Virus record (IMG/VR): IMGVR_UViG_2724679239_000007
Span: 1 to 24,973 of that record
Direction: 5' to 3' (one strand)
Source of the DNA: a virus
Taxonomy: Duplodnaviria; Heunggongvirae; Uroviricota; Caudoviricetes
DNA: 24,973 nt
This document shows positions 9,338 through 20,452 of the stretch, piece by piece (position 1 is the first letter of the stretch; the number at the start of each line of letters is the position of its first letter). The translations under genes and the position numbers were made by a program. The notes beneath the pieces are model-generated. The model did no database searches. It saw only the letters and a program-made list of their open reading frames with translations, and was not told the origin of the DNA.

Positions 9338-9412
<75 letters not shown>

Positions 9413-9415
9413 ATA

Positions 9416-9491
<76 letters not shown>

Positions 9492-9785: not shown

Positions 9786-10607
9786 TTATCTGGTTACCTT
9801 TTTTAACTGCCGCTCCGCCCATGCCTCTTCAATGTCAAACCGAACCACCAGTGTGTCATAGAATTGCTTAACAGTTTTTTCCCATGACGCGCGTGTTATC
9901 TGATTTGTCACCTTACATATGGCATTAAATGCCTCCGTTGACGGCAATCTTTCATAGCCACGACCACCACAACGCTGGCAGTCTCTGATAACAGGCATAC
10001 CACGTTTTACCGACTCTTCACGATGAATGGCGACACCACGCCCACGGCAATCCTTACAGGCGGTGGAGACCTCACCCTTTCCCCCGCATTCAGGACAGGC
10101 AACTTTTACCACTTCCCGGACTTTTTTCCATTCTTCCCAGTAAGACGGATACACACCCTTTGTACACTTTGCCCATACCGGCGGTTTACCATCCGGATAC
10201 TGGACCTTGTTTGTAAAAACTACGCTTTCAATAAATTTTTTCCCACCGCAACAAGGGCACTGTTTTTTACTCGCTGCACTGCGGGCATAATCCTCAAAAG
10301 CGTACGAAGCCATAATGCGCATCACTGCCGGTTTTATTTCTGCCGGAAGTTTTCTTAACGCCGCCACGCCATCACACCGACTGAGAGCATATTCTGTCAG
10401 TAGTTCTGTTGCCCGCTCCCGGTCATTCATACTGATGCCCATTTTCCCCAGGAACGCAGAAAATCCCATCTCAGCACGGTCTTGTGTCATACCCTGCGCA
10501 GCCATCACATCAGTGATACTCAGCGTATCTTTTGACGTCGAGACGGATGCATCAGTCAGACCTGGCGATTTTGGGGAGTAGTATTTCGGTAAATCTTCCA
10601 GCTTCAT
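9786..10607 (-). CDS. Late gene antiterminator Q-like protein (zinc-ribbon type)
   Basis: 273 aa with several CxxC pairs (CPCCGG, CPECGG, CKDCRG, CQRCGG); immediately upstream of pR'/tR'; start overlaps the rusA stop. Confidence 0.7.
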   Translation of the reverse strand: MKLEDLPKYYSPKSPGLTDASVSTSKDTLSITDVMAAQGMTQDRAEMGFSAFLGKMGISMNDRERATELLTEYALSRCDGVAALRKLPAEIKPAVMRIMASYAFEDYARSAASKKQCPCCGGKKFIESVVFTNKVQYPDGKPPVWAKCTKGVYPSYWEEWKKVREVVKVACPECGGKGEVSTACKDCRGRGVAIHREESVKRGMPVIRDCQRCGGRGYERLPSTEAFNAICKVTNQITRASWEKTVKQFYDTLVVRFDIEEAWAERQLKKVTR

Positions 10608-12747: not shown

Positions 12748-12786
12748 CGCGTTGAAAATAAAAACAAAAACCCGCCGAAGCGGGTT
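12748..12786 (-). terminator. Rho-independent terminator downstream of hokD
   Basis: On the minus strand AACCCGC-TTCG-GCGGGTT followed by TTTGTTTTTATTTTC. Confidence 0.45.
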
Positions 12787-12854
12787 AAGTGCGGGTGCGT
12801 TGAGGATGCCTGCCACATCAGAGGTGGCGAGGGATTTCTCCCTCGCCGGGTCTC

Positions 12855-13010
12855 TTACTCCTCAGGTTCGTAAGCTGTGAAGACAGCGACCTCCGTCTGG
12901 CCGGTTCGGATTCGTACCTCGCAGAGGTCTTTCCTCGTTACCAGTGCCGTAACAATGACGGTTAAACAGATGACGATCAGGGCGATTAACATCGCCTTTT
13001 GCTGCTTCAT
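12855..13010 (-). CDS. hokD: Hok-family type I toxin (HokD/RelF-like)
   Basis: 51 aa from MKQQKAMLIALIVICLTVIVTALVTRKDLCEVRIRTGQTEVAVFTAYE: single TM plus the conserved Hok C-terminal motif. Confidence 0.85.
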   Translation of the reverse strand: MKQQKAMLIALIVICLTVIVTALVTRKDLCEVRIRTGQTEVAVFTAYEPEE

Positions 13011-13045
13011 AGCCTGCTTCTCCTGTGTAAGTTCACAGAGATATT

Positions 13046-14110
13046 GCAATTGCCTCAGGATAAGTAAGGGGAAATTGCACTATGCAAATGCAGCATCTGA
13101 TGGTTGGCTATCCTAAGTACTACCAAACGGCCGATTATGCGTTGAGGCTTTCAGTGATGGCTGATACAGCAACAATGAGAATGAAGGCTCTGCACTTCTG
13201 GGATAAACACGGTATTTCTGCGGCTTCTGAAGCCTTTGGCGTGTCCTGCCGCACGCTTTACTGGTGGCGTCAGTTACTGAACAAGGAAGGACCTGAGGGG
13301 CTAATCCCGCACAGTAAGGCACCTCTGGTGCGACGAAAAAAACACTGGCATCCCGATGTGCTGAAAGAGATTCGACGCCTCAGGACAGAGCTGCCGAACC
13401 TCGGTAAAGAGCAGATTTTTGTTCGCCTGAAGCCCTGGTGCGAACAGCGCTATCTGGCCTGTCCGAGTGTTTCCACCATCGGCAGAATGATCGCTGCCGC
13501 ACATGATAAAATGCGGATGATACCTGTGCGTCTGGGATCGCGGGGGAAGGCACTGCTTGTCAAAAAGCGGTCTGCCAAACCCCGCAGGCCAAAGCACTAT
13601 CGCCCGGTAAAGACAGGTGAGCTCATTGGGATGGACGCCATTGAGCTCAGAATGGGCGAACTGCGTCGCTATGTCATCACCATGATCGACGAATGCAGCA
13701 ATTACGCGCTGGCGCTGGCTGTGCCGTCACTCAACAGTGATATCGTCAATCACTTCTTCAGCCGCGCAGCCCGGTTGTTCCCGGTCGGTATCAGCCAGAT
13801 AATCACAGATAACGGAAAAGAGTTCCTGGGAAACTTCGACAAAACGCTGCAGGAAGCCGCTATCAAACACCTCTGGACCTATCCCTACACGCCAAAAATG
13901 AACGCTATCTGTGAACGTTTTAACCGGACGTTAAGAGAGCAGTTTATTGAATTTAATGAGATTTTACTCTTTGAAGATCTGGCGCTATTTAATCAGAAGC
14001 TGGCGGAATATCTGGTGCTGTATAACAGCAAAAGGCCCCATAAGGCGCTCGCGCTAATGACACCCGTGGAATATATTTTAAGAGAGAACAAAAATTGCAA
14101 TATGTGGTGG
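13046..14110 (+). mobile_element. Putative insertion sequence carrying a single-ORF DDE (rve) transposase, IS481-like; boundaries approximate
   Basis: Transposase gene plus short inverted ATATTGCAATT motifs at about 13051 and 14098; boundaries and target duplication not resolved by eye. Confidence 0.35.
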
Positions 14111-14278
14111 ACCCATACATCTCCTTGCCTTTCGGCACGTAAGAGGCTAATCTTCAGTTGTCGAGACATAAGACTGGCCTCACTTCGATTTATAGTCGGG
14201 TGGGGCTTTTCTCTATCTGCCTTTTGGTGTTCATGCCTGAGACAGATAGCCTCAAGCACCCGCAGCAATTCTACTTAA
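13082..14278 (+). CDS. DDE-type transposase (N-terminal HTH plus rve integrase core), IS481-family-like
   Basis: HTH region HFWDKHGISAASEAFGVSCRTLYWWRQ; catalytic D (GMDAIE), D (TDNGKEF) and E (ICERFNRTL) with about 58 and 35 aa spacing; the C-terminal tail beyond about residue 340 looks like read-through into flanking DNA. Confidence 0.7.
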   Translation: MQMQHLMVGYPKYYQTADYALRLSVMADTATMRMKALHFWDKHGISAASEAFGVSCRTLYWWRQLLNKEGPEGLIPHSKAPLVRRKKHWHPDVLKEIRRLRTELPNLGKEQIFVRLKPWCEQRYLACPSVSTIGRMIAAAHDKMRMIPVRLGSRGKALLVKKRSAKPRRPKHYRPVKTGELIGMDAIELRMGELRRYVITMIDECSNYALALAVPSLNSDIVNHFFSRAARLFPVGISQIITDNGKEFLGNFDKTLQEAAIKHLWTYPYTPKMNAICERFNRTLREQFIEFNEILLFEDLALFNQKLAEYLVLYNSKRPHKALALMTPVEYILRENKNCNMWWTHTSPCLSARKRLIFSCRDIRLASLRFIVGWGFSLSAFWCSCLRQIASSTRSNST

Positions 14279-14302
14279 CTATCCTTTTCCCGCAAATCGT
14301 TT

Positions 14303-14386
14303 TTATCCCCAGCGACAAATCGAATACACCACCAGCGCCACCGCCATTGCAATTCCCATCGTTGCGAATGCTTCAGGCCAGGTCAT
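14303..14386 (-). CDS. Candidate 27-aa hydrophobic peptide translationally coupled to the upstream 187-aa ORF
   Basis: MTWPEAFATMGIAMAVALVVYSICRWG; ATG overlaps the TGA of the 187-aa gene (ATGA) and has GGAGGA about 10 nt upstream; below the ORF-track size cutoff; coordinates may be off by 1. Confidence 0.3.
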   Translation of the reverse strand: MTWPEAFATMGIAMAVALVVYSICRWG

Positions 14387-20396: not shown

Positions 20397-20452
20397 TTTC
20401 TGGTGACGTTTGGCGGTATCAGTTTTACTCCGTGACTGCTCTGCCGCCCTTT
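20397..20452 (+). ncRNA. dicF: DicF small RNA (ftsZ-targeting antisense sRNA)
   Basis: TTTCTGGTGACGTTTGGCGGTATCAGTTTTACTCCGTGACTGCTCTGCCGCCCTTTTT matches my recollection of DicF, including the terminator hairpin GGCGG...CCGCC plus T-run; sits just upstream of dicB. Confidence 0.7.

Follow-up and report, generated by a model that had tools for sequence, protein, structure and literature searches.

An insertion sequence assigned to the IS481 family lies between a hokD-type toxin gene and its sok/mok control region

A hallmark of hok messenger RNAs (mRNAs) is that they fold back on themselves, an element at the 5′ end (tac) pairing with a fold-back inhibitory element (fbi) (PMC9841398). In Escherichia coli K-12, the hokA, hokC and hokE loci are regarded as inactivated by insertion elements near their reading frames, and hokD by a rearrangement, according to two papers (PMC7337300; PMC12214031), both of which cite Pedersen & Gerdes 1999. 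For plasmids, a comparison of the IncHI5 group records for most of its members, without comment, an "insertion of ISKpn28 upstream of hokG" (PMC6339943). This descriptive remark is the only mention of ISKpn28 and hokG in the literature that we searched, where we found no account of ISKpn28, or of the IS481 family, targeting hok genes or promoters. Here we analyze a stretch of 24,973 nucleotides (nt) of viral DNA (IMG/VR record IMGVR_UViG_2724679239_000007, Caudoviricetes), from here on the window, in which a hokD-type toxin gene stands next to an insertion sequence (IS). An earlier note on the same DNA had described this gene as an orphan hokD. The explanation that we favor, and that taken as a whole we consider very likely, is that the window holds a hok/sok locus split by the IS, that hok is disconnected from its expression signals, and that the IS belongs to a group that targets promoters.

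The split hok/sok locus

A scan of the window with Rfam reports a full-length match to the sok family (RF01794, model positions 1-157) at 14114-14261 on the minus strand, with a score of 117.1 bits (gathering score 59) and E = 2e-26. The match sits 1.1 kb upstream of hok. In an uninterrupted relative, from strain PEC422 (locus L003), the end of this model coincides with the hokD ATG, and for that reason we take the match to mark the leader of the hok mRNA. The earlier note could see no mok/sok-like control region by eye, and named a canonical sok antisense RNA in the flanking sequence as something that would contradict its reading; a complete control region, sok included, is in fact present at 14120-14295, on the other side of the IS.

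The DNA in between is an IS that we assign to the IS481 family, ISKpn28 group, 1096 base pairs (bp) long, at 13024-14119 (+), recognized by its full-length matches elsewhere and its shared ends, which are the imperfect terminal inverted repeats TGTGTAAGTTCAC.../TGTATGGGTCCAC.... We place its boundaries on three grounds. Similarity to IS-free hokD loci breaks off there; full-length matches (1-1096) to the segment turn up in 1,073 E. coli genomes, at numerous unrelated positions; and the junctions, which read ...gcctgcttctcc/TGTGTAAGTT...CCCATACA/tctccttgcc... (slashes at the IS ends), are flanked by a 5-bp direct repeat, tctcc, which is GGAGA on the hok strand. The hok-proximal copy of this target-site duplication (13019-13023, -) is the Shine-Dalgarno (SD) sequence of hok, and the leader-proximal copy lies at 14120-14124 (-). 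The element has the marks of a discrete member of its family, namely inverted repeats (starting with TGT), short duplications (of 5 bp, at 12 distinct sites), and copies at unrelated sites, with up to 38 per E. coli genome. Copies of the IS group stand at 2,253 places in complete E. coli genomes and at 2,578 places in PLSDB. Its ends are identical in loci L001 and L004-L012. The earlier note was right that an IS-borne transposase gene lies upstream of hok on the opposite strand, and its distance of about 40 bp has to be corrected: the tip of the IS is 13 bp from the hok ATG, and the two ATGs, of transposase and hok, are 71 bp apart. The interval 12748-13080 that it had assigned to hokD takes in 57 bp of the left end of the IS.

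On the near side of the IS we find the hok open reading frame (ORF), a regenerated SD, the fbi element and the terminator. The ORF (12855-13010, -), assigned from the ORF list and from homologous loci annotated as hokD, encodes 51 amino acids, MKQQKAMLIALIVICLTVIVTALVTRKDLCEVRIRTGQTEVAVFTAYEPEE. The protein matches Pfam HOK_GEF (PF01848) with 82.9 bits, for a cut-off of 22, and is 100% identical to HokD of K-12-type relB-relE-hokD loci. For the hok mRNA, the terminator scan places an intrinsic terminator, AACCCGCTTCGGCGGGTT and then a T-run, at 12769-12786 (-), and the 13-nt fbi element, CCTCAACGCACCC, falls at 12793-12805 (-) in a minimum free energy (MFE) fold of the IS-less sequence. An intact Hok-family gene with its terminator and a 3′ hairpin was what the earlier note had described, and so it is. 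The fbi element is complementary to the 5′ end of the mRNA (tac), and the two now lie some 1.4-1.45 kb apart across the IS.

On the far side are a putative hok promoter, tac, the Sok target, some 20 codons from the start of mok, and what we read as the entire Sok gene and its promoter. The Rfam match gives the hok leader at 14120-14261 (-), comprising tac (14250-14261), the upstream stem-loops, the Sok target and the mok start. The mok frame, which is part of an ORF at 13993-14268, is truncated: it starts with an ATG at 14167-14169 and ends at 13993, so that mok' (13993-14169, -) has its stop 127 nt inside the IS. From sequence and positional homology we predict a Sok promoter at 14125-14153 (+), with a -35 of TTGCCT (14125-14130), a 17-bp spacer and a -10 of TAATCT (14148-14153). 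Its -35 begins 6 nt from the tip of the IS, with 5 bp in between. The counterparts at the same position in the plasmid hok/sok loci L011 and L130 are TTGCGC-17-TATCCT and TTGCGT-17-TATCCT. The putative Sok antisense RNA gene, of ~53 nt and with approximate ends (14160-14212, +), is placed by its sequence, fold and position; it would end in a hairpin (CCTCAC...GTGGGG) followed by CTTTTCT, and the terminator scan reports a terminator-like site at 14197-14219 (+). A putative hok promoter, read from the sequence, is TTGCGG (14290-14295), a 16-bp spacer and TAGAAT (14268-14273), that is, 14268-14295 (-), with 8 of 12 consensus matches and its -10 lying 6 nt upstream of the GGGTGC 5′ end. As a side observation, directly upstream of this promoter there is a 27-amino acid hydrophobic ORF (MTWPEAFATMGIAMAVALVVYSICRWG, 14303-14386, -), and a small hypothetical coding sequence is annotated at the matching place in strain TB4019 (L006, 2849-2953).

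What did the locus look like before the IS? Deleting in silico the IS and one copy of the repeat yields a 395-nt hok mRNA, from GGGTGCTTGAGG... to the terminator. In the MFE fold of this reconstruction, nt 1-12 pair with nt 356-368, which is the tac/fbi pairing, and we observe it in the IS-less form only. The hok ATG falls at nt 151, and a mok frame of 68 amino acids, beginning at nt 93, overlaps hok. In the window, mok neither overlaps hok nor is coupled to it, and leader and toxin ORF do not form one transcription unit, with 1096 bp of IS between them. The uninterrupted 435-nt core of the locus is present in 4,007 of 5,426 complete E. coli genomes.

As judged from these sequences, the IS made a simple insertion, with a 5-bp duplication, into an intact canonical hok/sok locus, and it did not replace relBE. 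It entered at the hok SD, duplicating GGAGA, 13 nt from the hok ATG and 5 bp before the Sok -35. The description of hokD as an orphan holds insofar as the gene is detached from its controls and has no relBE, and fails insofar as sok and mok are present across the IS and the locus is not the remnant of a Qin arrangement that lost relBE.

The transposase ORF (13082-14278, +; from the ORF list, Pfam and NCBIfam) has 346 codons within the IS and reads on through the Sok gene to a total of 398 amino acids. It scores 220.9 bits with the NCBIfam model transpos_IS481 (NF033577), just below the cut-off of 224, and 97.5 with the IS3 model. Pfam reports rve, rve_3, HTH/HTH_32 and a weak LZ_Tnp_IS481, and near-identical IS copies are labeled as IS481 family or ISKpn28 family in RefSeq. 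There is no in-element stop codon of the transposase frame in the window copy, in the consensus E. coli copy or in ISKpn28, and for this reason the C-terminus is set by the flanking DNA (348-398 amino acids depending on the site; L010 and L130 are further cases). In the window the frame continues across both the promoter and the gene of Sok, with which it is co-directional. The window copy of the IS differs by 12 nt (and two amino acids, T29I and R334K) from the copy that is identical across five other loci with the same hok-IS-sok arrangement, and the closest copy in complete E. coli genomes is no more than ~99.0% identical to it. The window copy is a distinct sublineage, apparently still under constraint, or possibly a metagenome consensus.

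Restraint of the toxin

How toxin expression is held in check can now be proposed. The hok gene lies ~1.25 kb from its sole recognizable promoter; mok ends inside the IS, so that the mok-coupled translation that hok needs should not occur; and the ribosome-binding region of hok is predicted to remain mostly base-paired. For the SD-AUG region, we calculate an unpaired probability of 0.26-0.37 in all contexts tested, for the native transcript as well as for transcripts starting inside the IS. Having lost contact with its promoter and with the translational coupling to mok, hok would be silent, and most likely it is this transcriptional and translational disconnection, and not Sok, that restrains it. 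The IS leaves the Sok gene and promoter untouched, so Sok is probably still produced, but it would no longer be relevant to hok.

An alternative is that hok is still expressed, either from an outward promoter in the left end of the IS or by read-through, and is kept in check in some other way, such as by a closed SD structure and low translation. We consider this unlikely. The ORF and SD are intact in every IS-bearing locus that we examined, and the terminator scan gave no intrinsic terminator on the hok strand inside the IS, so read-through from the hok promoter is possible. However, the intact ORFs say little, since the IS copies are identical and therefore recent, and the mok' stop 127 nt into the IS would leave ~970 nt of untranslated antisense RNA, a situation that usually invites termination by Rho. 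As to an outward promoter, a standard scan of the hok strand of the IS finds no site at the usual threshold of at least 9/12, and a lenient scan gives as its best sites weak ones of 8/12 with poor -35 hexamers; we regard such a promoter as unsupported. Moreover, a leaderless transcript would be immune to Sok, so that any appreciable translation of Hok should kill the cell, and yet 59 genomes have this arrangement.

Recurrence at hok loci and at promoters

Those 59 are complete E. coli genomes with the hok-IS-sok arrangement, among them the enteropathogenic E. coli (EPEC) strain E2348/69 (NC_011601.1, 1281243-1282782) and O103:H2 strains. We compared five of these loci (L001, L004-L007). All five have the IS at the same nucleotide, in the same orientation and with the GGAGA duplication, and the IS copies have 0 differences among them. 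The flanking leader, in contrast, differs by up to 67 of 175 nt (up to 38%), and the neighboring prophage genes differ as well.

The same is seen beyond these genomes. We located the left-end 24-mer of the IS in metagenome and genome contigs and obtained 30 distinct left flanks. In 8 of them, an ORF above the Pfam HOK_GEF threshold starts 3-15 nt from the tip of the IS. These ORFs include hokD-like, hokA-like, hokE-like and plasmid-type sequences, and in all 8 flanks hok and the transposase gene are divergent. As examples, the IS lies 13 nt upstream of a plasmid hok with the duplication GGAGA in L011, and 15 nt upstream of hokA with the duplication CACAG in L012. ISKpn28 itself is at hok/sok loci in 7 of 7 plasmid copies sampled, one in an E. 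coli plasmid and six from Klebsiella and Enterobacter, and in the E. coli plasmid it occupies the identical point of the locus.

We made three side observations on these flanks. In E. albertii NBRC 107761 (L013, L015), a hokD-like gene is found on a 553-bp contig whose first bases are GGAGA and which closes with another IS left end directly behind the hok terminator, and a second contig has a hokE-like ORF 3 nt from an IS left end. In E2348/69 (L010; NC_011601.1, 486208-488503), a gene carrying the annotation of a DinQ-type type I toxin has the IS ~150 nt upstream of it, with a perfect-looking TTGAAT-17-TATAAT placed 5 bp past the right end of the IS and antisense to the leader of that toxin; a second family of type I toxin-antitoxin systems may be split here in a like manner. 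Finally, scanning species-representative genomes for the IS end reported 3 loci only, two in E. albertii and one in a likely contaminant contig. The E. coli variant of the IS looks confined to Escherichia, and such a scan is of little use as a census of the IS.

Why the same nucleotide? We compared 26 distinct right flanks of the IS, taken from complete genomes, metagenome contigs and viral contigs. Directly after the 5-bp duplication, at positions 6-8 past the right end of the IS, 17 of the 26 sites read TTG, where the background is 1.6% per position (P ~5e-25); any other offset has it in at most 4 of the 26. Information content peaks at positions 6-9 (TTGa) and 29-34 (TAtAnT), which correspond to a -35 and a -10 that are 17 bp apart. 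Among the TTG sites away from hok, a -10-like hexamer at a spacing of 16-18 nt occurs in 11 of 12, against a background of 5.1% (P ~7e-14); examples are TTGACA-17-GATAAT (L008), TTGCCA-17-GATAAT (L009) and, already mentioned, the DinQ-type site of L010. The left flank of the IS shows no signal. We also considered a bare target motif, CAA/TTG next to the duplication, and found it insufficient, given that the -10-like hexamer is enriched too; because of this second hexamer, the target looks like a whole promoter. Most of the sites that break the rule have no target duplication and are thus probably rearranged.

In the mechanism that we propose, elements of this IS group would, on insertion, place their right end 5 bp before a sigma-70 -35 hexamer, the transposase gene being co-directional with the promoter. 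Since the -35 of Sok abuts the SD of hok, hok/sok loci would be cut repeatedly at the same nucleotide.

Could the recurrence at hok come instead from one ancestral insertion that was spread by recombination among prophages and plasmids, or from selection for the inactivation of hok, with no target specificity? To this we give little credence, even though it has points in its favor. Lambdoid prophages are mosaic, mismatched duplications at some loci (L132, L135, L136) show that IS-mediated recombination shuffles flanks, and IS150 and IS186 are also found at hok loci of K-12 (PMC12214031), which suggests selection or tolerance. A single ancestral insertion is rejected for the 59 E. coli genomes, though, by IS copies that are identical inside flanks up to 38% different. 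A second ground for rejecting it is that the homologous nucleotide is struck in different hok subfamilies, which differ in local sequence and in duplication (GGAGA, GGAGG, CACAG, GTGCT). If selection for inactivation were at work, it would not hold both the position and the orientation of the IS to the exact nucleotide. And the sites away from hok have in common only a promoter-like TTG-17-TAnnnT at the fixed offset of 5 bp.

The most frequent phage target other than hok deserves a separate mention. It is present in 17 viral contigs as two related alleles (L090 and L095, both from IMG/VR viral contigs), with TTGAAA-17-TAAATT as the promoter, followed by a conserved GC-rich structured sequence (ggtgtggtgaatccccctatgcggagggg...). 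This structured sequence may be an unannotated phage small RNA.

relBE-hokD, the prophage and known systems

That the window derives from a Qin-type relB-relE-hokD in which the IS replaced or deleted relBE, its hokD never having had mok/sok or having long lost them, is very improbable, for although HokD is 100% identical to that of K-12, rem and DUF968/ydfU follow downstream in the Qin order and the window has no relBE, a complete sok/mok/tac leader lies directly past the IS, the perfect 5-bp duplication indicates a simple insertion with no deletion, and excising the IS in silico restores a canonical hok mRNA. The absence of relBE, already stated in the earlier note, is confirmed: searching the whole window by tblastn and blastn with the K-12-type genes gave no RelB or RelE (best tblastn E = 0.15), no relBE remnants were found between 14120 and 14300, and relB and relE do not stand directly upstream of hokD on its strand, as they do in Qin relBEF.

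The two arrangements may nevertheless be connected. When a K-12-type relB-relE-hokD is compared with an intact hok/sok locus, similarity stops at the very same GGAGA, where K-12 reads ...gcgttgacaGGAGAagcaggctATG. A plasmid of E. cloacae (L136; OW967212.1, 107697-109592) has, on the hok strand, relE, the K-12 relE-hokD spacer, GGAGA, ISKpn28, GGAGG and a plasmid-type hok. Its RelE is 100% identical to that of K-12, and the relE-hokD spacer has 1 nt different (relative to the K-12-type locus L002, 3930-4025). The mismatched duplication (GGAGA/GGAGG) identifies it as an IS-mediated recombinant, and the sequence adjoining the IS there is not promoter-like. The relE-spacer-IS junction is found in 124 plasmids, and also in one plasmid of E. 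coli. Copies of the IS that sit at hok SDs thus do swap what lies upstream of hok, and the relBEF fusion of Qin may have arisen by recombination between two ISs, the IS then being lost across the 5-bp repeats. We looked for an IS footprint where relE meets hokD in K-12 and rejected it: only 3 nt (ACA) match the tip of the IS, and the rest of the 71-nt spacer is not IS-like.

We put forward tentatively a general proposal. ISKpn28-group elements would be promoter-targeting, with the right end exactly 5 bp before a sigma-70 -35, co-oriented with the promoter and biased to the strong promoters of Sok. They would systematically disarm hok on prophages, chromosomes and resistance plasmids while sparing the antitoxin, and recombination between copies would swap the DNA upstream of hok and may have fused relBE to hokD at GGAGA in K-12 Qin.

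Several points weigh against our reading. Behind the promoter rule stand 26 + 7 sampled sites, of which several share ancestry and roughly one in four departs from the rule. Selection could add to the bias for hok, insertions being harmless because Sok is spared. The Sok and hok promoters score 7-8 of 12 against the consensus, below the threshold of a generic scan, and are assigned by positional homology. With the hok ORF intact and its SD regenerated, ribosomes could in principle translate a transcript that arrives from the IS. Some members of the IS481 family, such as IS481 of Bordetella, do drive outward transcription. Both the silencing of hok and the continued synthesis of Sok are predictions from DNA sequence.

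With respect to its setting, the window also includes a full-length DicF small RNA at 20398-20449 (+) (Rfam RF00039, 76.7 bits). Because DicF is accompanied by rem, DUF968 (ydfU-like), RusA and a Q-type antiterminator, we take the window to be a Qin/Kim-like lambdoid prophage region. Two transfer RNA (tRNA) genes, at 9341-9412 and 9419-9491 (-), lie just downstream of the Q-like antiterminator gene (9786-10607), and in related prophages (L003) tRNA-Ile and tRNA-Arg occupy the equivalent position.

For the window, the puzzle of an uncontrolled toxin goes away: hok is disconnected from its expression signals, an ordinary form of hok inactivation that has been described before, and the locus itself is of modest interest. 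What is less ordinary is the precision, the same IS group being found at this position in several hok subfamilies, on prophages and on plasmids. The wider pattern offers a concrete reason for the presence of IS elements beside hok genes, an association on record since the K-12 work of 1999. It also points to a bacterial IS that may recognize promoters, either as promoter DNA or as promoter-bound RNA polymerase, and it is this site-specific, promoter-directed behavior that deserves to be followed up. If correct, many of the hok/sok "addiction" modules annotated on resistance plasmids of Klebsiella, Enterobacter and E. coli are split and probably non-functional, which matters when plasmid stability is inferred from annotation or when Sok is considered as a therapeutic target.

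We finish by setting the locus against the systems closest to it. It shares with hok/sok (parB) of plasmid R1 and with hokW-sokW of prophage Sp5 (PMC8621323) a Hok of ~50 amino acids, in its IS-less form also an overlapping mok and the tac/fbi pairing, and a predicted cis-antisense Sok with its own promoter. As in prophage homologs such as Sp5 hokW-sokW, its position is lambdoid, between the replication/nin region and the Q antiterminator. Unlike in R1, the module is not contiguous: 1096 bp of IS stand between hok on one side and its promoter, mok and the Sok target on the other, and R1-type regulation therefore cannot act on hok.

With Qin relBEF of K-12 the window has in common an identical HokD, a 3′ untranslated region that is 99% identical, and the same downstream neighbors (rem and the ydfU-like gene). 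The differences are that the window is without relBE, whereas the K-12 type is without the entire sok/mok leader.

The element itself resembles ISKpn28 of the IS481 family in its length of 1096 bp, its terminal sequences, an identity of 74.7% in nucleotides over the full 1096 bp and of 80% in amino acids, an open transposase frame with no internal stop, the 5-bp duplication, and the insertion point in hok/sok. ISKpn28 is common on plasmids of Klebsiella and Enterobacter, and the window copy is the variant of E. coli and E. albertii.

The closest precedent for the arrangement is hokA-IS150-sokA of K-12. In MG1655, IS150 lies 32 nt upstream of the hokA ATG, between mokA and sokA, which are annotated as pseudogenes. 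In both cases the IS is near the hok frame but outside it, between the sok/mok leader and hok, and IS-free alleles are present in other strains (for the window locus, the 4,007 genomes given above). When hokA of MG1655 (L131, 3720200-3722500) is compared with that of B4103-1 (L012), ~39 nt of leader, among them the mok start and the Sok -10, are absent at the junction with IS150, and thus a small deletion accompanied that insertion. The window differs from K-12 hokA in that its IS is of the IS481 family and not of IS3, in that Sok and its promoter are intact, and in that the same type of IS recurs at the homologous nucleotide across hok subfamilies and replicons. Inactivation of chromosomal hok loci by ISs is established, and the window adds another case of it, in which the IS comes from a different family.

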